Shown piece after piece: positions 18,587 to 52,863 of a stretch of DNA of 64,000 nt. The notes below the pieces were generated by a model, which was not told the DNA's origin, searched no databases, and worked only from the letters and a program-made list of their open reading frames with translations. How positions within the stretch are numbered: position 1 is the stretch's first letter; every line of letters starts with the position of its first letter. Origin of the DNA: a virus (lineage: Duplodnaviria; Caudoviricetes); the IMG/VR virus record IMGVR_UViG_3300025876_001969, positions 1,458 to 65,457 of that record; one strand, given 5' to 3'. The translations under genes were made by a program, and so were the position numbers.

Positions 18587-18590
18587 GCGG

Positions 18591-23470: not shown

Positions 23471-23767
23471 CTATTTTTTATCTAATTTATTACAGCTTAA
23501 TTGTATTAAATCCAATAGAGAATCAAATAACCAACAACAAGCACTAGAGCATAAAGGAAATAACAAATATAAAATATTACTTTCTTTAAAATTATACATT
23601 AATAAACCAATAAAGAAACCACACCAAAAGCCTAAACATAAACTACAATTAAATAATTCTTTTAATAAATTAGAATGTTTAAAAATAAAACTTCTCAGAC
23701 GGCCTAATATGGACCCATACCTAAGGATCCACATTAAGCCGACACAGGAGATCAATTCAATTACCAT
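23471..23767 (-). CDS. small membrane protein, DUF1360-like
   Basis: Hydrophobic segments and 'ELFNCSLCLGFWCG'. Confidence 0.6.
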   Translation of the reverse strand: MVIELISCVGLMWILRYGSILGRLRSFIFKHSNLLKELFNCSLCLGFWCGFFIGLLMYNFKESNILYLLFPLCSSACCWLFDSLLDLIQLSCNKLDKK

Positions 23768-26989: not shown

Positions 26990-27695
26990 AATTACAGTTT
27001 ACTGCTCGACCTATAATTCGATTAAGTGGATTAAAGGCTATTTGAACAATATAAACTCTCAGATCTCTGAGCCGTTTGATTTATTTTTCATAGACGCAGG
27101 TTCTACGGATGGCTCCCTTGAAGAAATTAAACAATTCAAATTTAATCGACATATTAATGTTTCTATTTTTGAGCCTGGATTTTTATCTATTTATGAAGCG
27201 TGGAATCTTGCGGTAGCTAAATCCAACACTCCATATTTAGTTAATTTTAATACAGATGATAGGCTTAACTTTCACACACTTTCAACTTACCATAATTACA
27301 TCGAGGGACATCCAGAAGTAGATTTATTTTACGGAGTGCATAACTTCGTGTCTGAAATTGGCGGACCCAATCTGCCAATAGGTGAGTACTGGAGAAATTT
27401 AACCAACTCCTTACTGTCTGAATCAGAAGAAAAGTTAATGTTTTCTATTAATCCCTGTGGGCCATTTCCTTTAGTCAAAAAAGCCTCCCTGATGGATGCT
27501 GGTGAATTTGATGAAAAATATTTTTCTTCTGCGGACTACGACATGTGGTTGCGAATGTTTTCGATGGGCATGAGGTTTAAAAGAACTCAAGATATCATTG
27601 GCGACTTTTTATATAGACCTGATTCAACCTCTCAAGCGAAACTTAAAGAGTCAGAACTACATGATAAAGAAATACAGGCAAAATATAAAACATGA
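26967..27695 (+). CDS. GT2 glycosyltransferase
   Basis: 'STYNS', 'IDAGSTDGS', 'IYEAWN', 'NTDD', 'FDEKYFSSADYDMWLR'. ATG 26967 preferred over 26904. Confidence 0.85.
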   Translation: MSTLSTSKITVYCSTYNSIKWIKGYLNNINSQISEPFDLFFIDAGSTDGSLEEIKQFKFNRHINVSIFEPGFLSIYEAWNLAVAKSNTPYLVNFNTDDRLNFHTLSTYHNYIEGHPEVDLFYGVHNFVSEIGGPNLPIGEYWRNLTNSLLSESEEKLMFSINPCGPFPLVKKASLMDAGEFDEKYFSSADYDMWLRMFSMGMRFKRTQDIIGDFLYRPDSTSQAKLKESELHDKEIQAKYKT

Positions 27696-28354
27696 AAAAA
27701 GTAGTATCATTTTCACTTTGGGGAGACTGCGAGCGTTACACAGTCGGCGCAATTGAAAACGCAAAAAGTATTGGTAGTGAATTTTATGCAGGCTGGGAAA
27801 GCTGGTTTTATACGCATCCGCTCGTAAGCAAAAAAAATCAAGAAAGGATTAAAGAAGAAGGCGGAAAGGTTATTTTGACAAATGATAATTCAGATTTTTC
27901 TATGTCTTTCGCTCGATTCAAGCCCATGACATGCAACGATGTATCTGTTTTCGTCAGTCGTGATTGCGATTCAAGAATTTCGGATAAAGAATATCAAGCT
28001 GTAATTGAATGGGAAAAAAGCGAAATGCAGTTCCATTGCATGAGGGATCATAAATTCCATAATGATTGGCCAGTTATGGCTGGCATGTGGGGTTGCAAGC
28101 GATCAGGTTGCGCTGACTTAAGTGAAATTTACGAAGATTTAATTAGTTTTCGCAAAGGCGATGAATATCATAATGATCAACATGGACTAAAAAGTATGTA
28201 TTCTAAAATCCGATTTCTATTTTTAGAACATGATGATTTCAGAAGGGGTTCAGGCATACAATTCCCTAATCATCAACCTTTTAAATACGGCTCGTTTGTT
28301 GGTGAGCGTATAACATCAGATAATAAAATTGGGCCAATAGAAAAATGGAGTTAA
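27692..28354 (+). CDS. putative glycosyltransferase-like protein
   Basis: 'VSFSLWG..YTVGAIEN', DxD 'SRDCDSR', 'MRDH', 'MAGMWG'. Confidence 0.6.
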   Translation: MKKVVSFSLWGDCERYTVGAIENAKSIGSEFYAGWESWFYTHPLVSKKNQERIKEEGGKVILTNDNSDFSMSFARFKPMTCNDVSVFVSRDCDSRISDKEYQAVIEWEKSEMQFHCMRDHKFHNDWPVMAGMWGCKRSGCADLSEIYEDLISFRKGDEYHNDQHGLKSMYSKIRFLFLEHDDFRRGSGIQFPNHQPFKYGSFVGERITSDNKIGPIEKWS

Positions 28355-29007
28355 ACACAAAAAGCGTTCTTATTCATCACCATCTCGGCCTCGGAGATCA
28401 TATTGTTTGCAATGCAATAGTTAGAAAACTTCATAAAAAATATAAAAAAATAAAACTCGCAGTGAAACATCATAATTTATCCAGCGTAAAGCAACTATAT
28501 AGAGATATTGATGTAGAACTTTATCCCGTAAACTCGGATTCCGATTGCGAAAAAATGTATAAAAATAACAAGTTCATCAGAATTGGTTTTGAGAATTGCA
28601 AGCTGCCCAATTGGGAGGAATCTTTTTACGATCAAATGAATATAGATTATTCGTACCGATTTTCACATTTCTTTATCGAAAGAGATTATGAGAGAGAAAA
28701 TTTATTAGAACAAAAGCTAGAGCTTGCCGATAAGTTTTCATTTCACAACAACTCATATAGCGGCGGAAAAATTGAAATAAATTTCACAAGCTCTTTACGT
28801 AAAATCTTCCTATCACCAATTACAGATAGTATTTTTGACTGGATTGGTGTACTTGAAAAAGCTGAAGAAATACACACCATAGACAGTTCAATATTTCAAT
28901 TAATAAAACAGTTAAATATTAAATCTAAGAATTATTTCTATAGCCACAGGAATCCATTCTTTAATTTCTCAAAAGAATGTGATCAGATATGGAATATTAT
29001 CGAATGA
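28345..29007 (+). CDS. GT9-like glycosyltransferase
   Basis: 'HLGLGDHIVCNAIVR', 'AEEIHTIDSS'. Confidence 0.65.
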   Translation: MELNTKSVLIHHHLGLGDHIVCNAIVRKLHKKYKKIKLAVKHHNLSSVKQLYRDIDVELYPVNSDSDCEKMYKNNKFIRIGFENCKLPNWEESFYDQMNIDYSYRFSHFFIERDYERENLLEQKLELADKFSFHNNSYSGGKIEINFTSSLRKIFLSPITDSIFDWIGVLEKAEEIHTIDSSIFQLIKQLNIKSKNYFYSHRNPFFNFSKECDQIWNIIE

Positions 29008-29026
29008 TGATGTAATATCATATATT

Positions 29027-29521
29027 ATGATTGAAACAATTTGCTTCAAAGATGAATCCTATCCACTATTTCAAAGCAGAGGTTACGCATCCCAATTCTG
29101 CATTCCTTTTGCAAAGCATGTGTGCAAGGGTAGTGGGTACGATGTGGGATGCATGAAAAAAGAATGGAGCTACCCTGGAGCAAAACCAATAGATATTTCT
29201 TTTGATGATCCATGGGATGCAAATAATTTACCTAGCAACAAAAAGGTTGATTATATTTTTTCCAGTCACTGCCTTGAGCACGTTCCCCACTGGGTTGATA
29301 CACTAGATTATTGGTATGATTTTATCGAAAGTTCCGGCACTTTATTTTTATACTTACCAGATTATAGTCAAACTTATTGGAGGCCATGGAACAACAGAAA
29401 ACATATACATATTTTCTCCAGAGATATAATTCATGACTATCTAAAAGATAAAGGTTATTCTAATATTTTTGTATCCAATGTAGATTTAAACAATTCCTTC
29501 ATAGCTATGGCTGAAAAATAA
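29027..29521 (+). CDS. class I SAM-dependent methyltransferase
   Basis: 'GYDVGC', 'DYIFSSHCLEHV', 'GTLFLYLPD'. ATG 29027 preferred. Confidence 0.8.
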   Translation: MIETICFKDESYPLFQSRGYASQFCIPFAKHVCKGSGYDVGCMKKEWSYPGAKPIDISFDDPWDANNLPSNKKVDYIFSSHCLEHVPHWVDTLDYWYDFIESSGTLFLYLPDYSQTYWRPWNNRKHIHIFSRDIIHDYLKDKGYSNIFVSNVDLNNSFIAMAEK

Positions 29522-29533
29522 CATCCCCCTAAA

Positions 29534-30325
29534 ATGAAGATAATAAAACCACTAATAGGCGGCCACGATGGATCATCATTCAGGGAACTGCTTGACGCAT
29601 GGGAGGAAAAAGGTTTTTGCGATATTGAAAATGGGCCAACTCATAGGTCTCCTGGATTCCAATCAGATCCAGATTCTCCAGAGGCAAAGTGCTGGGTAGA
29701 ACAACAAGGAGGTGTATTATTATATGATTTTCCCCTCCTAGATAGATTAAAGCATGATTACGATATGTGTCTTTTTTCAAATACATTTAAAAATGGGACT
29801 GGAAATAAAAAGTGGATCTTCTGGCCTTGGCGATCAAAAACTTATGAAGCATTAAAGAACGAATTACGCTTAAGTTATGAATCTAGAATGATAAATATAG
29901 GCTTTATTGGTACGCCTACCAATCATGAAAGGCACAAACTTTCTTTTGAGTGGTCAAAACATTGCGATTTATTCCATTATGAAACCAGAAAAGTAGATCA
30001 TATAGATTACCTTAGATCTCTTTCTCGCATGAAATATGGATTATGCTTAAGGGGGGTCGGGCCAAAATGCCTTAGAGATATAGAATTAATGGGAATGGGG
30101 ACGGTTCCTATTTTTACCGAAGGGGTGTGTGCTGATTATCCAGAACCTTTAATTGAAAACGTTCATTATGTTTGCGGCAAGAACTTGCAAATATCTCTTG
30201 AGAAAATCAAATCTACAACAAAGAAACAATGGGTGCGCATGTCTAATAATTGCATAGATTGGTTTGAAAGAAATTGCTCGATTGAAGGATCTTTTAATAA
30301 AACTTTATCTATAATCAATGAATAG
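29534..30325 (+). CDS. exostosin/GT47-like glycosyltransferase
   Basis: 'YLRSLSRMKYGLCLRGVGPKCLRDIELMGMGTVPI'. Confidence 0.65.
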   Translation: MKIIKPLIGGHDGSSFRELLDAWEEKGFCDIENGPTHRSPGFQSDPDSPEAKCWVEQQGGVLLYDFPLLDRLKHDYDMCLFSNTFKNGTGNKKWIFWPWRSKTYEALKNELRLSYESRMINIGFIGTPTNHERHKLSFEWSKHCDLFHYETRKVDHIDYLRSLSRMKYGLCLRGVGPKCLRDIELMGMGTVPIFTEGVCADYPEPLIENVHYVCGKNLQISLEKIKSTTKKQWVRMSNNCIDWFERNCSIEGSFNKTLSIINE

Positions 30326-32534: not shown

Positions 32535-33446
32535 ATGTCAAAGAAAAAATGTTTAGTTACAGGTGGCGCCGGGTTTATTGGCGGTCATCTTGTTGAAAGA
32601 TTACTTAAAGCCGGACACGATGTCGTCGTAGTTGATGATGAATCCTCCACTGCAAATTCTAATTTTACATGGAGAGATGATTGCGAAAACCACAAAGTAG
32701 ATATTTGCGATTTCGAGAAACTCAATCCACTCTTCAAGGGTGTTGACTTAGTTTTTCATTTAGCCGCCAGGTCCAGGATACAAATTTGCGTACAGGATCC
32801 AGCTGATGCTGTCAAGAACAACTCACTAGGAACTTGCAACGTTCTTCAGGCCGCGCGATTAAATAACTGCAAAAAAGTAATGTTCGCAGGGACATCCTCT
32901 TGCTATGGACTTAAAAATCCAATTCCCTTAAAGGAGGATATGCCGAATGATTGCTTGAACCCATATTCTGTAAGCAAGTCTAATTGTGAAGAGCTTTGCA
33001 AAATGTATACAAAACTTTTTGGCCTAGAAACTGTTCTATTTAGATTCTTTAACGTCTACGGGGAGCGTCAGCCTTTAGCTGGAGATTACGCGCCAGTTGT
33101 CGGCCTATTCTTTAGGCAAAAAGAATCAGGCGAAGCAATGACTGTTGTTGGAGATGGCCTTCAAACCAGAGACTACACTCACGTTAAAGACATAGTCGAG
33201 GCAATGTTTCTTGCTGGAGAGTCGGATGATAAGAAAATCGTAGGAGAGCTTTTTAATCTCGGAACTAGCACAAATCATTCAGTCTTAGATTTGGTTAAAT
33301 TAACTGGAGGTGAACACGTTCATATCCCAGCAAGACCAGGAGAGTCAAGGGAAACTCTTGCGGACAACACTAAGGCTAAAACTATGCTTGGATGGAACCC
33401 ATCCCGCAAAATAGAAGATTGGATTGAAAAGAACAGACCAAATTAA
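32535..33446 (+). CDS. NAD-dependent NDP-sugar epimerase/dehydratase
   Basis: 'VTGGAGFIG', 'PYSVSK', 'RFFNVYG', 'GDGLQTRDY'. Confidence 0.9.
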   Translation: MSKKKCLVTGGAGFIGGHLVERLLKAGHDVVVVDDESSTANSNFTWRDDCENHKVDICDFEKLNPLFKGVDLVFHLAARSRIQICVQDPADAVKNNSLGTCNVLQAARLNNCKKVMFAGTSSCYGLKNPIPLKEDMPNDCLNPYSVSKSNCEELCKMYTKLFGLETVLFRFFNVYGERQPLAGDYAPVVGLFFRQKESGEAMTVVGDGLQTRDYTHVKDIVEAMFLAGESDDKKIVGELFNLGTSTNHSVLDLVKLTGGEHVHIPARPGESRETLADNTKAKTMLGWNPSRKIEDWIEKNRPN

Positions 33447-34281
33447 AATCGGAGTTATAGGGAATGGCTTCGTTGGTTCCGCAGTTGCCAACGGATTTTC
33501 GTCTGAGGAAGTAAAGGTATATGATAAAAATCCAGACTCGTCAACTCACCCACTTAGAGATGTAATACTTCAGGATTTTGTTTTCATATGCGTCCCAACG
33601 CCAATGAGGGATGTTATGGGAGATGACTGCAATCTATCAATTATAGAGTCCTGCTTTAGCGAAATTAAATCCATCGGATCGAACGCCACCTTCATAATAA
33701 AATCAACGGTTCCAATTGGGACAACCGAAAGCCTACAGGAAGCGCATCCGGAATTACATATCATCCATTCCCCAGAATTTCTTACCGCTAAATTCGCAAA
33801 AGAAGATTTCATTAATGCAGATAGGCACATAATAGGCTATACCAAATACCAGCACGTCGCACAGGAAGCTGCCAGCTTATTTAAATACAATTTTCCTGAT
33901 GTGCCATGTCTTATAATGAAAAGCGTTGAGTCTGAATCTGTAAAGTATATCGCTAATTGTTTCTTTGCTACCAAGGTTAGTTTTTTCAATGAGATACACT
34001 TGCTGATTGATAAACTTGGATTAGATTGGAACTCTATTATTAATGGAGTTATTAGTGACAAAAGAATAGGTGAGTCCCACTATCAAGTTCCCGGTCACGA
34101 CGGAGACAAAGGTTTTGGTGGCACATGCTTCCCAAAAGACATTAATGCATTAATATCCACCTTTGAGAAAAATGGGCTAGATGCGAAACTTTTAAAATCA
34201 GCATGGTCAGTTAATCTAGACGTAAGGAAAGACCTGGACTGGGCAAACTCAACTTCTGCCGTAGACAATAGCGATTCATAA
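33424..34281 (+). CDS. UDP-glucose/GDP-mannose dehydrogenase family protein (short form)
   Basis: 'IGNGFVG', 'CVPTP', 'IKSTVP', 'SPEFL', 'GFGGTCFPKD'. Lacks the C-terminal domain. Confidence 0.9.
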   Translation: MKRTDQIKIGVIGNGFVGSAVANGFSSEEVKVYDKNPDSSTHPLRDVILQDFVFICVPTPMRDVMGDDCNLSIIESCFSEIKSIGSNATFIIKSTVPIGTTESLQEAHPELHIIHSPEFLTAKFAKEDFINADRHIIGYTKYQHVAQEAASLFKYNFPDVPCLIMKSVESESVKYIANCFFATKVSFFNEIHLLIDKLGLDWNSIINGVISDKRIGESHYQVPGHDGDKGFGGTCFPKDINALISTFEKNGLDAKLLKSAWSVNLDVRKDLDWANSTSAVDNSDS

Positions 34282-34283
34282 AT

Positions 34284-34367
34284 TTAACAATAAGCACACT
34301 AGGGATTCTGTCTATCATCTTGTTTGTTTAAGATTCTCATATTCATCCTTGGTTCTCTTATTGTTAA
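34284..34367 (+). ncRNA. structured element copy 1 (unknown family)
   Basis: 11-bp and 9-bp outer stems enclose a 10x10 loop and inner hairpin. The 44-nt core (34304-34347) is 37/44 identical to 40268-40311. Confidence 0.55.
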
Positions 34368-34387
34368 TAAATTATTTTCGTTTTTAC

Positions 34388-34416
34388 TTGATCTACACGT
34401 TTTTTTATGTTAGTAT
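34388..34416 (+). promoter_or_regulatory. sigma70-type promoter of nrdA
   Basis: TTGATC-N17-TAGTAT with TGn. Confidence 0.65.
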
Positions 34417-34481
34417 GCTTTCTTTAACAAAACTTACATTTTTTATAAAACAACACAACCCCTTAGTGTAAAAACAATTTC

Positions 34482-36950
34482 ATGAATATTAAAGTTAAGA
34501 AAAGAAACGGCCGCCTAGAAGAATTTGAAGTAGATAAAATAAACGCAAGCGCATTAAGAGCGTGCAGTGACATAGACAACGTTTCTCCAAGCGAAATAGT
34601 TCTAGATGCCCAATTACAGTTATTCGACAAAATAACTACTATCGAAATAGACAAAGCTTTAGTTTTATCTGCTAGGGAAAAAATAGAAAAAGAGCCAAAC
34701 TACTCTTACGCTGCTGCAGGGTTACTATTAAACTGCTTATACAAAGAAGTATTCAAAGAAGGGGTCGACTCAGAAGCTTTTGAATTGCAGTACAGAAAAA
34801 GCTTCATACAGAACATTAAAAAATTAGTAAAGCAAGAGATGCTGGACGAAAGATTACTTGGCTTTGATTTCACCAAACTCTCAGAGGCGCTAAAGATAGA
34901 CAGGGACAAGAAGTTTAAATACCTAGGAATCCAGATACTATTTGATCGTTACTTCATAAGAAGTGAAAAGAAAATAATGGAAACTCCTCAAGCTTTTTGG
35001 ATGAGAGTTGCAATGGGTCTAGCTATTAACGAAGAAGATAAAAACGAAAAAGCAATAGAGTTTTACAATCTGTTTAGTCAATTTTTATACACAGCTTCTA
35101 CCCCCACACTATTCAATAGTGGCACAACCCACTCGCAACTTAGCTCTTGCTATCTCAATACTTTTGATGATAGTATTGATGGCATATTTGATGGAGCTTG
35201 GCAGGAAGCTAGAAAATCTAAGTTTGCGGGTGGTCTAGGTTTTGATGTAACTCCATTTAGGTCTTCAGGCTCCCACATCAAGGGAACAAATGGAACTTCT
35301 GGAGGCTTAATTCCATGGTTGAAAATTTACAACGACTTGCTGGTTGCTGTAAACCAAGGTGGAAAGCGTCCAGGAGCAGGTTGTGCATACCTAGAGCCTT
35401 GGCATTTAGACTTTGAGGATTTCTTAAACTTAAGAAGAAATACTGGTGACGATAGACTCAGATGTCACGATATGAATACCGCCTCATGGATCCCAGATAT
35501 CTTCATGAGAAAAGTTGAAGCTAATGAGGATTGGTACTTCTTCGACCCGAACGAAAAGCTCACTGATAGCGATGTAAGCCTACACGATTCCTTTGGTAAA
35601 GATTTTGACAATAGATATCAAGCAATGTGTCAATCAGCAGAAGACGGAAATGTTAAAAACTTTAGAAAAACTCCAGCAAAAGAGTTGTGGAAAAAAATGC
35701 TCAAGGTATTATTTGAGACATCACATCCTTGGTGCACATTCAAAGATCCGTGTAATATAAGATACACTAATCAGCACGAAGGAGTTGTCCATAGTAGTAA
35801 TCTATGTACAGAAATAACACTCCACACTAAAGCCTCTAAATATAAATCCGGCGAGAAGACTGAAATTGGCGAGACTGCTGTATGCAACCTAGGATCAATA
35901 AATCTACTGAACCATGTGGAGGAGAAGTCCACGCACGGTAAGTCTGGTTATTTCATTAATTACGATAAACTAAAATCAACAATACACACGGCCGTAAGAA
36001 TGCTTGATAATGTTATTGATATCAACTTTTATCCAACAAAAGAAGCCGCTAACTCAAATCTAAAAAATCGCCCTATAGGGCTAGGTATGATGGCGATACA
36101 CGACGTGCTTCATAAATTAAATATTAATATTGATAGCGATGAATCTATTAAATTCAACGATGAATTGTTTGAGTTTTATTCCTGCCAGTCTATATATGCT
36201 AGCTCCATACTAGCTAAGGAAAGAGGATCCTATGAAACTTATGAAGGCTCATTATGGAGTCAAAACATTTTTCCAATTGATTCCTACAATAACCTAATGT
36301 CCTACAAGGGTCAAGCTCCACTTGGTAATGGTGAAACCAAGAAAGACGAGTGGGAAATCTCAAGGCAACATGTTTCTGAATTCGGTATGAGAAACTCTAA
36401 TGTTATGGCTATTGCGCCAACTGCAACCATAGGTTATATTAACGGAGTAGAGCAAAGCATTGAGCCCAACTTTTCCGTACTCTTTGTTTATGAAAATAAA
36501 AGCGGCAACTTCTTTATTACCAACCAGCATTTTATTGATGACATGAAAAACGAAGGCTTATGGAGCCCAGAGGTGGCAAAGCTAGTCAAGGATGTTGACG
36601 GAGATCTTTCTTTACTTGATGGCGATATCCCACAGTGGATAAAGGAAAAATACAAAACCGCCTTTGACAGGGATATGTTCAAGTTAATAGAATGCAATGC
36701 AGCTAGGCAAAAATGGCTCGACCAAGCGATTAGCTTTAATTTATACAACAAGTCAACATCCTTGAAGTACTTAAACGACATTTATATGGAGTGCTGGAAA
36801 TTAGGACTAAAGACAACGTATTATTTAAGGAATAGGGCCGCCAGTAAGGTGGAGAAGTCAACCTCCGAAGAGTCAAATTCTTCTAGCTCTCAAACTTCCT
36901 GCAGTATTGAAGCAATGAAGAATGGTGGAGAATGTGAAAGCTGCCAATAG
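34482..36950 (+). CDS. nrdA: ribonucleotide reductase class I alpha subunit with ATP cone
   Basis: 'VKKRNG', 'TPTLFNSG..QLSSC', 'NQGGKRPGA', 'SNLCTEI', 'VCNLGS', 'APTAT', 'KTTYYLR', C-terminal 'CESCQ'. Confidence 0.97.
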   Translation: MNIKVKKRNGRLEEFEVDKINASALRACSDIDNVSPSEIVLDAQLQLFDKITTIEIDKALVLSAREKIEKEPNYSYAAAGLLLNCLYKEVFKEGVDSEAFELQYRKSFIQNIKKLVKQEMLDERLLGFDFTKLSEALKIDRDKKFKYLGIQILFDRYFIRSEKKIMETPQAFWMRVAMGLAINEEDKNEKAIEFYNLFSQFLYTASTPTLFNSGTTHSQLSSCYLNTFDDSIDGIFDGAWQEARKSKFAGGLGFDVTPFRSSGSHIKGTNGTSGGLIPWLKIYNDLLVAVNQGGKRPGAGCAYLEPWHLDFEDFLNLRRNTGDDRLRCHDMNTASWIPDIFMRKVEANEDWYFFDPNEKLTDSDVSLHDSFGKDFDNRYQAMCQSAEDGNVKNFRKTPAKELWKKMLKVLFETSHPWCTFKDPCNIRYTNQHEGVVHSSNLCTEITLHTKASKYKSGEKTEIGETAVCNLGSINLLNHVEEKSTHGKSGYFINYDKLKSTIHTAVRMLDNVIDINFYPTKEAANSNLKNRPIGLGMMAIHDVLHKLNINIDSDESIKFNDELFEFYSCQSIYASSILAKERGSYETYEGSLWSQNIFPIDSYNNLMSYKGQAPLGNGETKKDEWEISRQHVSEFGMRNSNVMAIAPTATIGYINGVEQSIEPNFSVLFVYENKSGNFFITNQHFIDDMKNEGLWSPEVAKLVKDVDGDLSLLDGDIPQWIKEKYKTAFDRDMFKLIECNAARQKWLDQAISFNLYNKSTSLKYLNDIYMECWKLGLKTTYYLRNRAASKVEKSTSEESNSSSSQTSCSIEAMKNGGECESCQ

Positions 36951-37344
36951 AAGAGCTTCTGGGGTTGCTGTACTATTTGAAAATTCAGTACTATTAGCGA
37001 AGAGATCAGAGAAGTGCCACGTTACCGGAAGGTCATATCCTTACGGAGGTTACTGGTCTGTTTTCGGTGGATCAATAGACGAAGGCGAAACTCCAATTGA
37101 ATGCGCCGGAAGAGAATTATTAGAAGAGTCTAAAATATTTGCAGACTTTAAATTTATTGAGTTTATCGATGTGATAAGAGATGAATCTTGCGATTTCTAC
37201 TTTCACATATATAGATCCAACAAGATAGTGATTCCAGAGCTTTGCCAAGAACACACCGAGTTTGGTTGGTTTAAAATCAACGAGCTGGTTCACTTCCAAG
37301 ACTTGATAGACTACAACATAGTTAGGCTGCTAGATAGTATATAA
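36922..37344 (+). CDS. NUDIX hydrolase
   Basis: Nudix box 'GGSIDEGETPIECAGRELLEES'. Confidence 0.9.
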   Translation: MVENVKAANRRASGVAVLFENSVLLAKRSEKCHVTGRSYPYGGYWSVFGGSIDEGETPIECAGRELLEESKIFADFKFIEFIDVIRDESCDFYFHIYRSNKIVIPELCQEHTEFGWFKINELVHFQDLIDYNIVRLLDSI

Positions 37345-37370
37345 TTACAATTTCATGTGTATTTATATAC

Positions 37371-38516
37371 ATGAGTAAAAAACTAATACAATCAATAATT
37401 TCCGTATTACTAGACAATCCAGTATCCAAATACGTCAAAAAAAATAAATTTTCAGAAAAAAAATTAAATGTTTCCGAGCATCCTGCCGATAAAAGAGATT
37501 GGGTTCACGTCTCTCAGTATTTAAAATCTGAAAGTATTAGCAGTAAGGAATTCTCCAGAAGATCACTATGCGTAAGCGTCGCTAACCAAGGGTCAATAGG
37601 TTCATGCGTGGGTCACAGCGGAAGGGTTGTTCTTGGTTCGGCTAGTGCGTTTAAGGCTGAAGAGCCAAGCCCTATGTGGATATACAAGACTGCTAAAAAA
37701 TACGACCCATGGGCTGGCGAAGATTACTCAGGAACATCGATCAGGGGGGCTGCTAACGCATTAATAAACGAAGGTTGCTGCTTTGAAAGCTTTTGGCCAT
37801 ATATAGATAGCGAATCCAGCAGCCCTAAAGAAGGGGCAAAAGAAGACGCTGGACTAAAGAAGATTAGCTCCTACCACGTTATACCCTGCTCCGAAACAGA
37901 AGAGATCAAAAGGATGGTGATTGACCGGCCACTTTGGTATGCATTCAAGGTTAGGGATTACTTTTTCTCTATTGGATATGACGGCATTGTTGACACAGAA
38001 AAATACTTAGCATCAGAGGTTGCTGGCGGCCACGCAGTATGTCTTATCGGATGGAAGTATATAAACGACAAGCTTTATTGGGAATTTCAAAACAGTTGGG
38101 GTTTATTTTTTGGAAACTCTGGCTACTTTTTTATGGAGGATTCCTTATTTAGGTCTTCTATCATGAACTCTATTGGCCCCTACTATGTAGAGCTTTCGGA
38201 TGGGTTTGTTAATCCAAAACCAATTGACCCCGATCCAGAACCTATCGAACCAGATCCAGAACCTATCGAACCAGAACCAGAACCTATCGAACCAGAACCA
38301 GAACCCATCAAACCAGAACCTAAGAAAAGCAAAAACATACCATTGATAATTTGCGCAATAATTGTGATTCTAGCATTAATTATATTTTCCAGCTCCTCTG
38401 ACCCCGAAGCATTACCAATGAACTGGGATGAAAAATTAGAAAAAGAGTTTAAAGAGAAAGGCATAGATAGAGACTCATACTTGCGCGATTTTAAGAAAAA
38501 ACAGCAAGCAGAGTAA
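37371..38516 (+). CDS. papain-like (C1A) cysteine peptidase with Pro/Glu linker and C-terminal TM helix
   Basis: 'NQGSIGSC', 'GGHAVCLIGW', 'QNSWG..G.SGYF', (PEPIEPx)n, 'IPLIICAIIVILALIIF'. Confidence 0.9.
   Translation: MSKKLIQSIISVLLDNPVSKYVKKNKFSEKKLNVSEHPADKRDWVHVSQYLKSESISSKEFSRRSLCVSVANQGSIGSCVGHSGRVVLGSASAFKAEEPSPMWIYKTAKKYDPWAGEDYSGTSIRGAANALINEGCCFESFWPYIDSESSSPKEGAKEDAGLKKISSYHVIPCSETEEIKRMVIDRPLWYAFKVRDYFFSIGYDGIVDTEKYLASEVAGGHAVCLIGWKYINDKLYWEFQNSWGLFFGNSGYFFMEDSLFRSSIMNSIGPYYVELSDGFVNPKPIDPDPEPIEPDPEPIEPEPEPIEPEPEPIKPEPKKSKNIPLIICAIIVILALIIFSSSSDPEALPMNWDEKLEKEFKEKGIDRDSYLRDFKKKQQAE
38214..38321 (+). repeat. 21-nt coding tandem repeat (PEPIEP[D/E])
   Basis: CCAGAACCTATCGAACCAGAW about x4 from 38235, plus one degenerate upstream unit. 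Confidence 0.9.
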
Positions 38517-38833
38517 TGAATCTGATCATAGACTCAACCCTATCCGAACCTCCCAGCGAGATATCCTGCTTCAGGGACGTAACTATGTATAGTAAAGTGT
38601 TTCATTTTGAAAACGTACTACTTTCCTGCAAGATGGGCACAAGATCTATGTACTGGAACTGGTTAAAGAATAACGGCGCTCATGATTTCATCTCTTATGT
38701 TCTCCACGAGGGAGAGTTGGAATCTGGCGCATTAATGCATCCAGAAAAAGGAGATATAGTCGTAGATAGAATAAACGCGCTCAACTTAAACTACATAATA
38801 ACCAGGCTCAAAAGAATATCAGAAAATCTATAA
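38516..38833 (+). CDS. hypothetical protein
   Basis: 105 aa, TAATG-coupled to the upstream gene. Confidence 0.6.
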   Translation: MNLIIDSTLSEPPSEISCFRDVTMYSKVFHFENVLLSCKMGTRSMYWNWLKNNGAHDFISYVLHEGELESGALMHPEKGDIVVDRINALNLNYIITRLKRISENL

Positions 38834-39157
38834 ATGAAAAAATATATATTAATTTTAATCATTCCCTTCTTGCTTAATTGTTCTACATTTAAAAAAAGTA
38901 AAAACACCAATAACTCAACAAGTATACAACAAGTTATACCAAGTATTAATGATTTCAATAAAGCTGATATAAATAAAGACCAAGTTATAGATAAAAATGA
39001 ATCAATTAAATTTTTTAATAAAAACAATTCAATAGACTACAATACTCCTTTTGCAGTTTTCTCTATACTGTCGACCATTGTTATGGTTATTTGTTTTTGG
39101 CCGATAGTTTATTCTTATTTATCGTCTTTAATTAAAAGATTCAAGAATCGTTCTTGA
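38834..39157 (+). CDS. putative lipoprotein with EF-hand-like loop and C-terminal TM helix
   Basis: 'MKKYILILIIPFLLNC', 'DINKDQVIDKNE', 'FAVFSILSTIVMVICFWPIVY'. Confidence 0.65.
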   Translation: MKKYILILIIPFLLNCSTFKKSKNTNNSTSIQQVIPSINDFNKADINKDQVIDKNESIKFFNKNNSIDYNTPFAVFSILSTIVMVICFWPIVYSYLSSLIKRFKNRS

Positions 39158-39165
39158 TTTTTTAC

Positions 39166-39194
39166 TTGACCTTTCTTGTTTTTTATTGTATAGT
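39166..39194 (+). promoter_or_regulatory. sigma70-type promoter of nrdB
   Basis: TTGACC-N17-TATAGT. Confidence 0.7.
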
Positions 39195-39233
39195 TATGTG
39201 ATCTAATTATTAATCGCATTCGTTATACTATAC

Positions 39234-40247
39234 ATGAAAGATAAAACAGGAGAACTTTTAACAGACAACATCGCCGGAGTAAACAGAATTTTACCCCACA
39301 AACATAAATACGCATGGGACCTATTCCTTAAGAGTTGTGCAAACAACTGGATGCCCACTGAAATATCTATGCAAAATGATATAGCCCAATGGAAGAACAA
39401 TGAAATTACAGAAGATGAGAAATTACTTGTTAAACGATGTCTTGGATTTTTTGCTGGAAGTGAGTCTCTGGTTGGCAATAATTTGCTTTTGTCCGCTTTT
39501 CGTTATATTACAGACGCTGAGTGTCGCCAGTATATATTGCGTCAAGCTTTTGAAGAAAGTCTTCACAACCTAACTGTTGTATATATATGCGATAGTCTTG
39601 ATTTAGAAATTGATGAGGTTTATGCGGCCTATCAAAATGTTCCAAGCATTAAAGCTAAGGATGACTTCTTAATGCAGATTACTGATGATATTAGTTCTAA
39701 TGACTTTAACTCAACTAGCATTGAGGGCAAGCAGGCCATACTAAGAAACTTCTTAACCTATTGGATTATATGCGAAGGTACTTTTTTCTTTAGTGGCTTT
39801 GCTATGCTTCTTGCGCTTGGTCGTCAAAATAAATTACAGGGTGTTTCTGATCAGATTAAATATACTTTGAGGGACGAAAGCTCTCACATTGCATTTGGAA
39901 CTTATCTCATCAATACTTTAATTGATCAAAACCCCTCTATTTGGACTAAAGAAATTCAAGAGGAATTCATTGAACACATTAAAAAAGCAGTTGACCTTGA
40001 AATTGCTTACGCAAAAGATGTTCTTCCCACTGGAATACTTGGGTTGAATGCAGACATGTTCGTAGACTATATGCATTATATCGGCAATAGACGCTTAGAG
40101 GCCATAGGATTAGATTACAGGTTCCCTAGTGATAAGAACCCATTCCCTTGGCTAGGAGAGGTTGTTGACGTGCAGGCGATGGGTAATTTCTTCGAAAGAA
40201 GAGTTCGCGAGTATCAACAAAGCGGCTCTTTAGAAGACGACTTTTAA
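39234..40247 (+). CDS. nrdB: ribonucleotide reductase beta subunit, class Ic-type (no radical Tyr)
   Basis: 'NNWMP.EI', 'LGFFAGSESLVGNN', 'FEESLHNLTVVY', 'EGTFFFSGF', 'RDESSH', 'NFFERRVREYQ'. Confidence 0.95.
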   Translation: MKDKTGELLTDNIAGVNRILPHKHKYAWDLFLKSCANNWMPTEISMQNDIAQWKNNEITEDEKLLVKRCLGFFAGSESLVGNNLLLSAFRYITDAECRQYILRQAFEESLHNLTVVYICDSLDLEIDEVYAAYQNVPSIKAKDDFLMQITDDISSNDFNSTSIEGKQAILRNFLTYWIICEGTFFFSGFAMLLALGRQNKLQGVSDQIKYTLRDESSHIAFGTYLINTLIDQNPSIWTKEIQEEFIEHIKKAVDLEIAYAKDVLPTGILGLNADMFVDYMHYIGNRRLEAIGLDYRFPSDKNPFPWLGEVVDVQAMGNFFERRVREYQQSGSLEDDF

Positions 40248-40260
40248 ATTCTAAAAAGCG

Positions 40261-40318
40261 CCTTGGAGATTCTGTTTATCATCTTGTTTGATCAAGATTC
40301 ATGTTTTCATCTTCAAGG
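40261..40318 (+). ncRNA. structured element copy 2 (unknown family)
   Basis: CCTTGGAGAT/ATCTTCAAGG 10-bp stem, 10x10 loop, inner hairpin ATCTTG-N6-CAAGAT. Confidence 0.55.
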
Positions 40319-40366
40319 AGTTTAATTTTATTGGATATATAGCTTGCATGTAGTGTAATTTACATA

Positions 40367-42904
40367 GTGGCATGCAGTCGTATATATATATTATCTAGCG
40401 TAAGTGGAGAAACTGGAACTCTTCGCTATATATCCAGTGAATCAATATCAAATTCTCACAGAGTAACCACTTCAGAGATTTATTCCACAAATGGTAATAT
40501 AACGAATCTAAGTTCTACTAACGCAAAAATTTATGACTCAGAAAGTTTCCACAAGGGTTATAAGAATTATGCAATTAACTATGAGTATCCAGAAACAACA
40601 TCTAGTAGTTCTTTTTTTTACTCAAGCAAAGAGCCATATATTTCAGGCGAATCTTCCGATTTTATTGGCGAATCCATAAAACTTAATGATGACGGAAAAG
40701 TTCTTGCCGTAAGCTCTCCTTCTGGAAATGGCCTTGTTAGAGTTTTTTCTTCTGATGGAGACTATTGGGAGCAGCTGGGTGCAGATATAGAGGGTGCTTT
40801 TCCTGAAGGTCTAGGCTCCTCTATAGATTTAAACAAAGAAGGCGACATGTTAGCGATTGGGGTTCCTTTTGCAAATCTAAATTCAGGTTTAGTTAAAATT
40901 TATGACTGGGATAACTCTTCCTGGATTGCTAGAGATCCATCTATTAGCGGGAAATCTATTGAGAATTTTGGCTGTTCACTTTCCTTAAGTAAAGACGGCG
41001 ATCATATTGCAATTGGCGGAGTCTCAGCCAATCTAAATTCAGGTATTTCTCGTGTTTATAATTGGGTCAATGGATCGTGGAGCGAAATGGGCAACGGTGT
41101 TAGCGGAATTTCCGATGAAGAACATTTAGGCTCTGCTATAGATATATCTACAGATGGGCAAACCATCTTGGTTGGTGGATCTGGAGATGATGGCGGCAAT
41201 GGGCTAGTTAGGTCTTACCATTATAGCGGAGCTGCTTCTAGCGGACTGCTAGGTGGATTGATTTTTACCTCAAACGAAGAAGATTCTTCTTATAATGACT
41301 TTTCTATTTCAGTTTCTCAAATAGCTGGAGGCACAACTGCCCCTAACGCACCGACTCCAGCTACTGTTGCCTATAATGCCCCAGCGAATCTAATCGTATC
41401 TGCCGACATAAACAATGGGCAAGCCACAAATAGCGGTGTAGCAATCAATCTATCCTCCCCCGCAAATTCCGCTGAACTTTCTTCCGCTGGCTTTTCTGTA
41501 TCCATGGCTAGCGGTCTAGAATTGGATCCTATAATATCTTCCGGGCCGACCCTAACAGAGGGTGGTATCGATCCATATTGGAACCAATTAGGTCAAACTA
41601 TTAATGGGTCAAATAATGAAAAATTTGGATCCTCCGTAAAAATGCGTGATTCACATTATTTTGCAGCAGGAGGGGTTGAGGGAAATAACGGAGATGGATC
41701 TATACGCGCATATGAATTTCACAGCACATCAACCGTAAATTCGTGGAATCTGCATCAAAACTTACCTAGTGGCAAGAATTTTGATCTTAATACTAACTTC
41801 AGTATTCTTTCTGTGGGTCACCCTGAAGCTAATCTTGGGAGTGGTTTGTGCAGGACTTACGGATACCACTCAGATTGGGAGCCAATTGGACAAGACCTAA
41901 TGGGTGAATCACAAGATGAAAGATTTGGTAAGTCTGTATCTCTTAATTCAAATGGTTCATTTCTTTGCAGCTCCGCCAATCTTTACGGCGTAAATAAAGG
42001 ACTAGTTCGCGTGTATAATTTTGATTATATTGCTGATTTAAATTTAAATTCCACAAGAGTTACCTCAGAAAAACTTAATCTGGACTATTACAAACTACCC
42101 ACATTTGACCCTTTGGTTATAGGGGACGTATGGAGATCTGAGGGCGACTTTTTAAAAATTAGCGCGGGATGGAGTCCTGCTGTCATCAATACGCTTGCAT
42201 GGTATGATGCTGCAGATGCGTTCACTATAACCTCTTCTTCAAATATTATTAGCGAGGTCAAGGATAAGTCTGGAAATGGGTTAAATTTAACAGTGATAAC
42301 CCCTGGAAGGACTGGCCCAAAAACAGGAAGAAGGACACTCAATGGATTAAATGTCATTGACTGGGACGAAGACAGACAATTCCTTGAAAATCTTAACTTC
42401 TCTCACGATCAAGCGTCGACCCCCTTGTTTATAGCTGTGGTATTTAAAGCTGATGTAGATGGTAATCAAGATTTTATTTTTGCAGGCACGACATCATCTG
42501 CAATTGGTGATAGGATGGCGTTAAGAAGATTCAACACAAGTAATGGTTTTCAAATTTTAGGCGGTAGCGGTACTGGCACAAACATAGCTATGGATTCCGG
42601 TGCGGACACAGTATTAGAGGGCGAGACCTATATAATTCTTTCAAAGTTGAATTCATCGAACTCACAAATAAGAATAGATGGACATTTTAAAAATACTGGC
42701 AACATAGGAACCAATCATTTAAATTCTATAAAATTAGGCGGAAATGCTATTGGTGGCTCAAACCTAGAAGGTTATGTTGCTGAATTTATTATTTTCTCAG
42801 ATATAGGTGAACAAGAAAACATAGAGGGCTACTTAGCTCACAAATGGGGTCTTACTTCAAAATTACCAGCAGATCATACCCATAAAAACAATTTAGCTTT
42901 TTAA
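40367..42904 (+). CDS. virion protein: FG-GAP-like propeller repeats + C-terminal LamG/ConA-like domain
   Basis: Repeats 'G.S..L..dG..LAvG.p..N...G.V..Y'. C-terminus 'AWYDAAD..VKDKSGNG..GYVAEFII..IEGYLAHKWG'. GTG start after a GTGTAA motif. Confidence 0.7.
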   Translation: MACSRIYILSSVSGETGTLRYISSESISNSHRVTTSEIYSTNGNITNLSSTNAKIYDSESFHKGYKNYAINYEYPETTSSSSFFYSSKEPYISGESSDFIGESIKLNDDGKVLAVSSPSGNGLVRVFSSDGDYWEQLGADIEGAFPEGLGSSIDLNKEGDMLAIGVPFANLNSGLVKIYDWDNSSWIARDPSISGKSIENFGCSLSLSKDGDHIAIGGVSANLNSGISRVYNWVNGSWSEMGNGVSGISDEEHLGSAIDISTDGQTILVGGSGDDGGNGLVRSYHYSGAASSGLLGGLIFTSNEEDSSYNDFSISVSQIAGGTTAPNAPTPATVAYNAPANLIVSADINNGQATNSGVAINLSSPANSAELSSAGFSVSMASGLELDPIISSGPTLTEGGIDPYWNQLGQTINGSNNEKFGSSVKMRDSHYFAAGGVEGNNGDGSIRAYEFHSTSTVNSWNLHQNLPSGKNFDLNTNFSILSVGHPEANLGSGLCRTYGYHSDWEPIGQDLMGESQDERFGKSVSLNSNGSFLCSSANLYGVNKGLVRVYNFDYIADLNLNSTRVTSEKLNLDYYKLPTFDPLVIGDVWRSEGDFLKISAGWSPAVINTLAWYDAADAFTITSSSNIISEVKDKSGNGLNLTVITPGRTGPKTGRRTLNGLNVIDWDEDRQFLENLNFSHDQASTPLFIAVVFKADVDGNQDFIFAGTTSSAIGDRMALRRFNTSNGFQILGGSGTGTNIAMDSGADTVLEGETYIILSKLNSSNSQIRIDGHFKNTGNIGTNHLNSIKLGGNAIGGSNLEGYVAEFIIFSDIGEQENIEGYLAHKWGLTSKLPADHTHKNNLAF

Positions 42905-51138: not shown

Positions 51139-52863
51139 ATGGAACAAATAAAAATACAAACAGGAGCAAACCTTAGTCGCTTGCTTCAATCAACAGTAAA
51201 CATACCTCAAGCCTTTACTGAGCTTGTAAAAAACTCGATACAAAATTTCTCTACATTTTGCCGCATTGATTTTAACGATGCATGCGCAACTATAATCGAC
51301 GACGGCCAAGGCTTTGATCATGAAAAAGATGAAAACGGCATGAGTGGTTTTGAGAAATACTTTGTCTTTGGAAATTCCTACGATATGACTGGCGGTAAAG
51401 GCGTGAAGCTTGGTCAAATGGGAATAGGTGGCAAACTTGCAAACGACAAACTCTCCAACGAGATTGATATACATTGGATCATTGAAACAAAGAATATCCA
51501 CGGCAAATGCTTTATTGTTGAATACAAGCCTTCTGGCGTCGAATTTTTGAACGATTATTCTCCTGAGCTTACTGAAATAAGCCCAGAAGAATGCTCTATA
51601 CTCACAGAGTCTGGAACAAAGATAACTATTGCAACCCTAAAAGACCATATACAAAAAGAGGGCTGGCCTTCTGGTCAAATTAAAAATGAGCTTTGCACTT
51701 TCTTTGGCTTCCTTTTGCCGCAGCTTGAAAAAGAAGGTAAGAAATTCGACCTAATCCTTAATGGGGAAAGTTTAGACTTTTCATACAAACTTCCTGGCTC
51801 TAATATTCCTATTATTAGGCGCGAATTTGAATACGACTACTACGGCGAAAAGCGCACCAGCAATATCGAATTTAGATTATCATTAATTTATAATCGCGGC
51901 TTAATTAAAAACCATCCATTAAAAAACATTGAAATAATATCAAAGGTTAAAATCTGCTCGCTTAACTTGTCCGACCAAGACTTACTAGAATCAACACTAG
52001 AATGGTTGGAAGAAAAAAACAAAGAAGAAATAAAAGATAAAGATAAAATTTATGATGTGTTTAATAAGTTGATTGGTTTTATTTCTTGCGATGACCTCTC
52101 TGAAGTTATGGATAGTACTGGAATGCCAGCCAAAGATCTTTCTCATCATGGGTTAAGGAGTGACCACCCCATAACGAACCCTTTTTACGAAAGAGTTTAT
52201 AAAGTTCTACTCGAGTGGATCGTTGAATATATCAAATTGAACTCCGAAGAAAAAATGAACATCCTTGACGCTCTTGCTAACGAGGTATCAAGCATGCTTG
52301 CTGAATATTTTGAAGACGAAGACTTTTCTGATTTATGGGACACTGAAGAAGAGGAGGACGACGAAGAAGAAGAACTAACAGAAGATGAGAAAAAAGAAGA
52401 GAAAGAAAGAAAAGAGTTGGAAAAATTCGCAGAGCTCACAATTGATAAAGAATGGGTTTTTGAGCCAGAACCGGAAGAGCCAGAACCGGAAGAGCCAGAA
52501 CCGGAAGATCCAGAGCCTGAAAATAATATACCTCCCCTCTGGAATAAATACAAAAACCAAAAATTAAAACAATCAAAAAGGCTAAGGTATAGAATTATTG
52601 ATTTTGGAGAGGAAGAATCTAAATCAATGTCTAAGGTTGATGACATATCTGACTTCACCATATTAATCAACAACGGCAATCCTAAATTCAAAAGATTCTA
52701 CGAAGAGAATTCTCCATTCTTATTGTCTCTTCATATTTCCGAACTACTTATTAGAGAGATATCAATGTATAAGAATCCTTTAGCTAGGCCTACTGATCTA
52801 GACGAAGCTATTAGTGATTTCTATTCCAATAAATACACCCAAATAAAGAAGAATAGTGAATGA
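51139..52863 (+). CDS. GHKL (Hsp90/MORC-like) ATPase with acidic and PEPEE linker
   Basis: 'ELVKNS', 'DDGQG', 'GQMGIGGK', 'GTKI'. Confidence 0.85.
   Translation: MEQIKIQTGANLSRLLQSTVNIPQAFTELVKNSIQNFSTFCRIDFNDACATIIDDGQGFDHEKDENGMSGFEKYFVFGNSYDMTGGKGVKLGQMGIGGKLANDKLSNEIDIHWIIETKNIHGKCFIVEYKPSGVEFLNDYSPELTEISPEECSILTESGTKITIATLKDHIQKEGWPSGQIKNELCTFFGFLLPQLEKEGKKFDLILNGESLDFSYKLPGSNIPIIRREFEYDYYGEKRTSNIEFRLSLIYNRGLIKNHPLKNIEIISKVKICSLNLSDQDLLESTLEWLEEKNKEEIKDKDKIYDVFNKLIGFISCDDLSEVMDSTGMPAKDLSHHGLRSDHPITNPFYERVYKVLLEWIVEYIKLNSEEKMNILDALANEVSSMLAEYFEDEDFSDLWDTEEEEDDEEEELTEDEKKEEKERKELEKFAELTIDKEWVFEPEPEEPEPEEPEPEDPEPENNIPPLWNKYKNQKLKQSKRLRYRIIDFGEEESKSMSKVDDISDFTILINNGNPKFKRFYEENSPFLLSLHISELLIREISMYKNPLARPTDLDEAISDFYSNKYTQIKKNSE
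52462..52521 (+). repeat. 15-nt coding tandem repeat (EPEPE)
   Basis: GAGCCAGAACCGGAA x3 plus one degenerate unit. Confidence 0.9.

Follow-up and report, generated by a model that had tools for sequence, protein, structure and literature searches.

The two copies of a hairpin element that bracket the RNR operon of an uncultured phage are most likely marks of transcript ends rather than borders of a movable cassette. The DNA analyzed here (the window) comprises 64,000 nt of a 65,457-nt virus record. The analysis shows how the element folds and which strand it favors, that it covaries and is constrained in sequence, where it lies, how it was inserted, and how narrowly it is distributed; termination, processing, and a protein partner are inferred. 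We give about an even chance to a plus-strand hairpin that forms transcript 3' ends through termination, RNase III-type processing, or both and carries an apical protein-recognition module. From 26222 to 63985, every gene is on the plus strand. The last gene ahead of copy 1 is UDP-glucose/GDP-mannose dehydrogenase-like (33424 to 34281). The RNR operon flanked by the copies (34482 to 40247) contains nrdA (34482 to 36950), NUDIX (36922 to 37344), a papain-like peptidase gene (37371 to 38516), two small ORFs, an internal promoter (39166 to 39194), and, as its last gene, nrdB (39234 to 40247). Both copies lie just after a stop codon, as the earlier note had described, with copy 1 beginning 2 nt past the TAA at 34279 to 34281 and copy 2 beginning 8 nt past the TAA at 40245 to 40247. 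Directly 3' of copy 2, also on the plus strand, is a variable gene (40367 to 42904), which encodes 845 amino acids in the window and in G003 and is replaced by an 83-amino-acid gene in G001, G002, L100, and L107.

The 44-nt cores at 34304 to 34347 and 40268 to 40311 are alike at 37 of 44 bases, and their sequences agree with those first reported. RNAfold recovered the proposed outer stem, 10x10 loop, and 6-bp inner hairpin in each copy. The whole hairpin of copy 1 extends from 34284 to 34367 on the plus strand (minimum free energy [MFE], -24.5 kcal/mol; z, -6.0; R1, 87.4 bits at 34292 to 34359). Its 11-bp basal stem, formed by 34284 to 34294 and 34357 to 34367, was found as described and is separated by a 3x3 loop from the outer stem, in which 34298 to 34306 pair with 34345 to 34353. 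Within the core, unit 1 (34304 to 34319), the inner hairpin (34317 to 34334), and unit 2 (34332 to 34347) follow each other, with N4 spacers at 34309 to 34312 and 34337 to 34340. Copy 2, also on the plus strand, extends from 40256 to 40323 with an AAGC/GUUU base (MFE, -21.5 kcal/mol; z, -3.7; 87.3 bits). Its outer stem pairs 40261 to 40270 with 40309 to 40318, and its core consists of unit 1 (40268 to 40283), the inner hairpin (40281 to 40298), and unit 2 (40296 to 40311), with N4 spacers at 40273 to 40276 and 40301 to 40304. None of 200 shuffled sequences folded as well as either copy. The 28-nt tandem period of the core is real. The suggested refolding into two small hairpins, however, was not borne out, with energies of +1.2 and -1.0 kcal/mol versus -13.0 and -20.5 kcal/mol for the nested fold and pair probabilities of 0.0000; the nested fold dominates the ensemble in both copies. 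When folded, the direct repeats form a pseudo-two-fold-symmetric 16x16 region that reads GAUUC-N4-WWUCAUC on both strands. A scan of the whole window against Rfam 15 gave no match at gathering thresholds, in keeping with an unrecognized element. Below threshold (E up to 10, two 191-nt regions), no family was common to both copies, and the best match had an E value of 0.19 (patAB on the minus strand, 21.6 bits versus a threshold of 92).

The preference for a plus-strand RNA, previously argued from four G.U pairs on that strand, which we also found, is upheld by stronger folding on the plus strand than on the reverse strand (-18.7 kcal/mol for copy 1 and -15.5 kcal/mol for copy 2 by RNAfold) and by compensatory changes together with an invariant G.U pair in the outer helix. 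Across seven distinct copies, 91.2% of cells pair, whereas only 35 to 57% do so when the pairing scheme is slid by 1 to 3 columns. Five pairs of the outer stem are altered on both sides, among them a change of G-C to A-U that separates orthologous alleles of copy 2, and the G.U pair at columns 11 and 58 is kept in 7/7 copies. The covariation score was matched by none of 500 shuffles, with most of the signal from these seven sequences supplied by the contrast between the two paralogues. The element is most simply taken to act on the plus strand as a single strand, RNA being the simplest form. Besides the pairing, the core shows sequence constraint, except in its two 4-nt spacers, which are nearly random. 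Summed over five orthologous comparisons, differences amounted to 10/180 in the nonspacer core, 17/120 in the arms, and 26/40 in the spacers, a division that was picked after the data were seen; at four-fold sites, for comparison, 13 to 21% differ. The two paralogues of the window differ at 3 of 36 core and 14 of 24 arm positions. In copy 2 of G003, the outer stem is weakened by an A.C mismatch, TCATT replaces TCATC, and a different fold is adopted in a 95-nt context.

The element is narrowly distributed. A 33-nt degenerate core pattern with up to 3 mismatches matched two sites in the window, which are both copies, and none in 100 shuffles. GATTC-N6-TCATC occurs four times in the 65,457-nt record, each time inside one of the two elements, and was not found in 1,399,396 bases of related phage DNA. 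Members of the family are the window, three IMG/VR contigs with identical NrdB, and near-identical metagenome pieces, always with the same two sites; there are two copies in the 65,457 nt of the record and two each in G001, G002, and G003. No convincing copy outside this phage clade was present among 20 genome-contig and 37 metagenome pattern matches. The carriers are a small group of uncultured marine phages. Relatives at about 70 to 78% DNA identity have both elements missing and the gene order unchanged. Since relatives without the elements keep the gene order, each copy is, on sequence comparison, a lineage-specific insertion of about 83 to 85 nt and does not delimit a mobile RNR cassette. 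The segment missing at copy 1 from seven relatives (34277 to 34359, plus strand) has ATT on either side. This insertion fell in the last codons of the upstream gene and gave that gene a new stop codon. Because the seven relatives have no hairpin at site 1, its function there is dispensable to them. The suggestion that nrdA to nrdB form a swappable module is not supported, given the identical gene order, inside and on both sides, in element-free relatives and the absence of chimeras of the two sites among 18 copies. Between the window and L004, L006, L100, and L107, homology breaks at the 3' edge of copy 2 and restarts at 42936; no corresponding indel was seen at copy 1. In relatives with the short gene, homology to the window stops at about 40327 to 40330, in the copy 2 tail. 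An IS200/IS605-like unit with end hairpins was rejected, as the cargo is at the same place in relatives without hairpins; a Pfam search of the six ORFs found RNR, NUDIX, and peptidase and no transposase.

As operon-end hairpins, copy 1 would end the sugar-nucleotide operon and copy 2 the RNR operon. Each outer stem (9 to 15 bp), together with a U-rich tail on the plus strand (TCTCTTATTGTTA, 34354 to 34366, after the outer stem of copy 1; GTTTAATTTTATT, 40320 to 40332, for copy 2), would halt or pause RNA polymerase and/or leave a protective 3' hairpin. The conserved apical 16x16 module would probably be where a dimeric double-strand-RNA protein docks or cleaves; the putative partner is most plausibly host RNase III, as at the intercistronic sites of phage T7, or else a phage factor. 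RNase III needs about two helical turns, and internal loops limit cleavage, leaving a protective 3' hairpin (PMC1540722); the quasi-helix formed here by 9 to 15 bp, the 10x10 loop, and 6 bp, 25 to 31 positions overall, would fit this requirement if the loop stacks. Like the T7 sites R1.1 and relatives, the elements are intercistronic, on the mRNA strand, and composed of two helices split by an internal loop, with a total length of about two helical turns or more, and the upstream RNA would keep a 3' hairpin. Their two-fold pseudo-symmetry would also suit a dimeric enzyme. Unlike known RNase III substrates, they have a far bigger, pyrimidine-rich 10x10 loop, and their upper stem is just 6 bp. 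Against transcript ends at these sites, RNA-library contigs span both copies at flat depth, for which read-through or library DNA is possible. Other points against this reading are the hairpin-free site 1 of seven relatives, the weakened copy 2 of G003, the interrupted U tracts, and the oversized internal loop. For copy 1, the sib/tI retroregulator of lambda was brought in purely as an analogy: the tail has an alternative pairing with 34284 to 34294 and would pair upstream only on read-through, making the helix 11 bp longer and a possible RNase III substrate. Copy 2, in contrast, has a short extension only. We also consider, tentatively and with clearly lower confidence, that the core may be an undescribed two-fold-symmetric RNA internal-loop motif, bound by a dimeric phage or host protein deciding transcript fate at operon borders. 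Each helix end would be capped by tandem U.C/C.U mismatches, the protein would cleave the RNA or mediate factor-dependent termination or antitermination, and the 4-nt spacers would be an uncontacted or cleaved center or a fast-evolving specificity determinant.

The earlier statement that neither copy looks like an intrinsic terminator is questionable. It agrees with a consensus terminator scan, which called neither copy, because the 38-nt apical part is far above the loop limit of 3 to 8 nt. Yet T-rich 8-mers (5 to 6 T) begin no more than 3 nt from the hairpin base of both window copies and of L004 and L006, and copy 2 sits at a position that in many relatives holds a canonical GC-stem/U-tract terminator; L005 folds otherwise in this tail analysis. 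Among 80 loci from relatives, 47 (37 of the 66 distinct sequences) have, by a loose criterion, a hairpin and T-tract after nrdB; at least 19 are, on inspection of the output, canonical GC-stem terminators. An A-rich stretch was noticed upstream of the elements. The copies resemble intrinsic terminators in having a stem and then a U-rich tail, A-rich sequence upstream, a post-stop position at an operon end, and canonical counterparts in the same slot in relatives. They could be plain terminators whose cores have no function of their own and are alike only through recent derivation of one copy from the other. The G001 allele of copy 1, a single-unit deletion of exactly one 28-nt period, consists of just a 9-bp stem and a loop of 10 nt and does resemble an ordinary terminator. 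We nevertheless regard this as unlikely, since the paralogue arms have become near-random while the nonspacer core has not, the core evolves between orthologues at about one-third the rate of four-fold sites, and a 38-nt apical insert, here with its own hairpin and conserved sequence, is costly for a terminator. The U tracts of both copies are broken up (5 to 6 T per 8), unlike those of intrinsic terminators, which also have a short loop of 3 to 8 nt and a compact GC-rich stem.

It is decidedly improbable that the copies are palindromes inserted selfishly or by accident, as MITE-like elements or through template switching, and of no use to the phage. In favor of this origin, both copies are lineage-specific insertions flanked by short direct repeats, and copy 1 landed in the last codons of a gene. 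Correia elements are MITE-like palindromic elements, small inverted-repeat insertions near gene ends that are able to form RNA hairpins, and the copies share these traits. However, the flanking repeats vary in length, being ATT or TAAAT at site 1 and, in G001 and G002, ATTCT at site 2; the 18 copies show no context other than the two sites, no spread to other sites or genomes is evident, the core is under constraint, compensating changes maintain the stems, and both sites are operon ends. A MITE/IS-derived element was rejected, given repeats that differ between the sites and just two sites with no other context. There is only a slim chance that the 16-bp direct repeats act as double-stranded DNA bound by a phage or host protein, as an operator, origin, or recombination site, with the flanking inverted repeats being a separate terminator or allowing cruciform extrusion. 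Conserved repeat ends around a free 4-bp center are found in many protein-binding sites, copy 2 is next to a recombination junction with a variable gene, and recombination between units took place in G001. Duplex DNA, however, leaves unexplained the covariation of the arms with G.U pairs, which on the opposite strand become A.C; the repeats, 28 bp apart, are not spaced by an integral number of helical turns, the distance to the next promoter varies between sites and alleles, and the RNR block is not mobile. Lambda nut and HK022 put are models for an RNA that modifies the polymerase transcribing it, by processive antitermination or otherwise. Two copies of about 70 nt in the same orientation, with conserved sequence displayed on a stem, would suit this role, and copy 1 comes after a gene end, as nutR does. 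We rate it very unlikely: the copies precede the candidate promoters of the following units instead of lying downstream of them, share no boxA-like element, and are missing from the close relatives G004 and G005, which keep the gene order.

Operon-end hairpins of this kind can also be compared with promoter-early stem-loops (PeSLs), which two reports describe as terminator/promoter cassettes of T4-type phages, about 50 per genome, with a stem-loop thought to end upstream transcription (PMC2839356, PMC4122927). As in those accounts, a G.T-paired stem-loop follows the upstream gene's stop in an AT-rich intergenic region and precedes a candidate sigma-70-like promoter, an unknown gene forms an indel between close relatives (here at copy 2), and nucleotide-metabolism genes are nearby. 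PeSLs share mainly the promoter and have simple stems (polyG-loop-polyC and similar), whereas the two copies here share an elaborate apical module and not the promoter, and neither chimeric copies nor circles were observed. PeSLs are further characterized there by many copies concentrated in hyperplastic regions and by flanking indels or replacements between close relatives; here there are two copies per genome, and such changes flank copy 2 but not copy 1.

If the operon-end assignment is true, the elements are a clear natural case of a phage lineage gaining operon-insulating 3'-end elements via small insertions. The empty sites of relatives, the one-unit deletion allele, and several spacer alleles are ready-made mutants, and the symmetric core would offer a small bait with which to find the protein that binds or processes it in a marine phage-host pair not yet in culture. 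Should they be just terminators or junk, the elements amount to routine annotation of an uncultured phage.

Both copies had also been placed just before a promoter. For nrdA, the sigma-70-like candidate TTGATC-17-TAGTAT (34388 to 34416, plus strand), 41 nt downstream of copy 1, matches the consensus at 8 of 12 positions and is absent from the list returned by the promoter scan; weak as it is, its position is kept in relatives. The promoter after copy 2 is uncertain; the window offers only a 9/12 match at 40367 to 40394, and G001 and G002 differ from it in sequence. The promoters following copy 1 and copy 2 are unrelated to each other.

An uncultured marine tailed phage is the source of the record, a fragment that has 36.8% G+C and encodes a J-like tail protein; the window represents 64 kb of an estimated genome of 130+ kb. 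No close cultured relative of the phage was found, and there was no megablast match. The blastn search for distant similarity matched only 140 nt within nrdA, and the best NrdB match by tblastn in the search for cultured relatives was 44.9% identical. All genes from 26222 to 63985 lie on the + strand with very few intergenic gaps. Copy 1 of the element (core 34304-34347) lies downstream of the UDP-glucose dehydrogenase-like gene that closes a run of sugar-nucleotide genes, and copy 2 (core 40268-40311) lies downstream of nrdB. In the interval bounded by the copies, nrdA and nrdB are separated by genes for a NUDIX protein and a papain-like peptidase and by two small ORFs. Sigma-70-like promoter candidates precede nrdA (8 of 12 consensus positions, conserved in relatives) and nrdB (10 of 12). 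Every aligned relative has GTGTAAA ahead of the start codon of nrdA (window about 34462-34468), and many relatives carry GTGTAAT with an AT-rich run, often ATATATAT, before the gene after nrdB (window 40355-40361). The motif could be phage-specific, acting as a promoter or as a translation signal.

At both sites, the sequence agreed with that quoted in the earlier note. A degenerate 33-nt core pattern with up to 3 mismatches matched the window only at 34304-34336 and 40268-40300 and had no match in 100 shuffles. Likewise, all four occurrences of the 16-nt unit GATTC-N6-TCATC in the 65,457-nt record fall within the two elements. RNAfold returned the proposed architecture of outer stem, 10x10 loop, and inner hairpin for both copies on the + strand, with energies of -24.5 kcal/mol (z -6.0) for copy 1 and -21.5 kcal/mol (z -3.7) for copy 2; the reverse-strand folds were weaker. 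Ranking the window by raw MFE was uninformative, being dominated by higher-GC coding regions. The suggestion that the element could refold into two small hairpins was rejected on the basis of energy (+1.2 and -1.0 kcal/mol versus -13.0 and -20.5 kcal/mol for the nested fold) and by pair probabilities of 0.0000. Both folded strands of the central 16x16 region read GAUUC-N4-WWUCAUC. The region is pseudo-two-fold symmetric because the direct-repeat units face each other on opposite strands of the hairpin, and in the alignment each of its helices closes with G-C, A-U, and U-A pairs, beyond which U.C and C.U are opposed in tandem. Inspection by eye of the aligned alleles revealed no spacer-spacer pairing within or between copies. 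In copy 2 of two IMG/VR contigs, G001 and G002, the spacer of unit 2 is paired with the UAUCA of unit 1, unlike in the other alleles. Copy 1 of G001 has lost exactly one 28-nt period, leaving a simple hairpin with 9 bp of stem and a loop of 10 nt.

Covariation was evaluated in an alignment of 68 columns and 7 distinct copies, a small sample in which the signal is largely a contrast between paralogues. Pairing was kept in 91.2% of cells. Five outer-stem pairs were altered on both sides, including a G-C to A-U change among orthologous copy 2 alleles, and the inner helix was constant save for one G-C/G.U change. Wobbles accounted for 20 of 147 cells, each of which the opposite strand would render as a mismatch, and the G.U at columns 11-58 was invariant. 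None of 500 shuffles reached the observed covariation score, and slid registers paired at only 35-57%. Summed over five orthologous comparisons, which are not independent, and with a partition chosen post hoc, differences amounted to 10/180 in the non-spacer core, 17/120 in the arms, and 26/40 in the two 4-nt spacers. The two window copies differ from each other at 3/36, 14/24, and 4/8 positions, respectively. At four-fold degenerate positions in three flanking genes, differences from the window numbered 81/487 (G001), 64/489 (G002), and 99/482 (G003, the third contig with the element). The core is therefore more conserved than recency accounts for, the arms drift with pairing kept, and the spacers are near-randomised.

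The element is very narrowly distributed. Pattern scans of IMG/VR found it only in contigs G001, G002, and G003, at the same two sites; four additional matches, without arms or a second unit, were taken as chance. A covariance model built from the seven distinct copies scored both window copies at 87 bits, with the next-best window match at 20, and detected both sites in all three contigs. Applied to the surroundings of nrdB in relatives (77 loci, 1.19 Mb), it scored at best 20.1 bits (E 0.74), and it matched none of five full records of relatives. Among 57 pattern matches in metagenome and genome contigs, 9 loci carried 10 true copies; all were near-identical to known alleles, 3 in the context of copy 1 and 7 in that of copy 2. 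One of these loci, a 7.7-kb contig (CAJQLD010000031.1) where copy 1 has its phage neighbours, has been assigned to a Flavobacteriaceae MAG, which reflects mis-binning or is at most a weak hint of the host. An Rfam scan, which the earlier note had proposed, gave no match. The sole hint of a CRISPR-repeat mimic was a sub-threshold Rfam match of 19 bits (E 1.7), and this candidate was rejected, as the genome-contig pattern matches contained no arrays.

The note had also raised the possibility that the two copies are recombination sites that make nrdA to nrdB a swappable module. Relatives at about 70-78% nucleotide identity, however, share synteny with the window in this region and outside it, and chimeric copies of the two sites were not found; a mobile RNR cassette bracketed by repeats was therefore rejected. 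In two syntenic relatives without the element, G004 and G005, 54 of 61 window ORFs have a match in one or the other and 7, potential candidates for a clade-specific partner protein, have none. ORFs without a tblastn match (27692-30325, 52856-53548, and 62433-63149) are variable genes within syntenic sugar/transferase clusters. Set against seven of these relatives, the window has 83 additional nt at copy 1 (34277-34359), an insertion with ATT on both flanks. It interrupts the final codons of the gene upstream and supplied a new stop codon; the old gene end (GAT TGT TAA TAA) survives to its right, and the left part of the insertion is complementary to the old target sequence, giving an 11-bp basal stem. 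At site 2, the distance from the nrdB stop to the conserved GTGTAAT motif is 0-33 nt in relatives versus 85 nt in G001 and G002. Both copies are thus small insertions specific to this lineage, and the RNR block itself is no mobile cassette.

Copy 2 does adjoin a recombination junction, as indicated by a homology break and a gene replacement. Homology of the window to the type represented by G001, G002, and loci L100 and L107 stops at the 3' edge of copy 2. The gene that follows (40367-42904) encodes 845 aa in the window and G003, and the gene in that slot (9114-9365 in loci L004 and L006) encodes 83 aa in G001, G002, L100, and L107. Both versions have an N-terminal LS-x-x-SGE-x-G motif in common. 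The window's version has no ATG at the conserved start, and in its C-terminal part it resembles (32%) a gene that G004 has at its convergent junction.

With the swappable module set aside, the reading of the element as a novel cis-acting RNA was supported in outline by fold, covariation, and position. Both hairpins start 2-8 nt past a stop codon, and T-rich 8-mers occur within 3 nt after them. A hairpin with a T tract follows nrdB in 47 of 80 relatives' loci by a loose criterion, and canonical terminators were read from the scan output in at least 19 of 66 distinct relative sequences; therefore, copy 2 occupies a terminator slot. We infer that the elements would act in mRNA at operon ends, in termination and/or in processing and 3' protection. 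RNase III substrates are described as spanning two helical turns, with internal loops that restrict cutting so that a protective hairpin stays at the 3' end (PMC1540722). The symmetric loop and a quasi-helix totalling 25-31 positions fit that description, although known sites have loops far smaller than 10x10. In genome logic, the closest described system is the promoter-early stem-loop (PeSL) terminator/promoter cassette of T4-type phages, which is present in many copies per genome, unlike the element (PMC2839356, PMC4122927). The element is a new, very narrowly distributed form of operon-end hairpin whose symmetric apical module is unusual and constrained in sequence. NrdR boxes have a palindromic consensus. 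They were rejected as an identity for the element, since its units are unlike that consensus and copy 2 is downstream of nrdB.

RNA-library data comprised four runs, all as contigs, which give no information on RNA ends. Both copies were spanned at even depth, about 30 in run X15 and about 16 in run X16. Pieces from run X17 end at 34304 and 40272, and those from X16 break at 40231-40260; these were taken as assembly breaks, because they fall immediately ahead of the polymorphic spacers and a lone 151-nt read makes up one of the pieces. Within the papain-like peptidase gene, 38264-38305 showed indel polymorphism and a depth, summed over the four runs, of up to about 10,000, and is probably a low-complexity stretch in common with other organisms.

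Other hairpins were noted in the window. A 13-bp hairpin with a U-rich tail at 18585-18625, exactly between the convergent tail-gene and glycosyltransferase blocks, is probably a terminator. It aligned weakly to the outer stem of the model (18.2 bits, E 0.11 over the window), a score that does not establish common descent with the element. A perfect 17-bp hairpin is present on the - strand at about 23682-23758, in a 508-nt stretch without an ORF of 100 aa or more. The window also carries a glycosylation gene set that is unusually large for a tailed phage (30533-34281, 45255-57764, and 60762-61754). It combines sugar-nucleotide dehydratase, epimerase, and dehydrogenase genes with a dozen or more transferase-like ORFs (GT2, GT17, GT92, Galactosyl_T, NodZ-like, two Sulfotransfer_2, and Nucleotid_trans) and is syntenic in G004 and G005.
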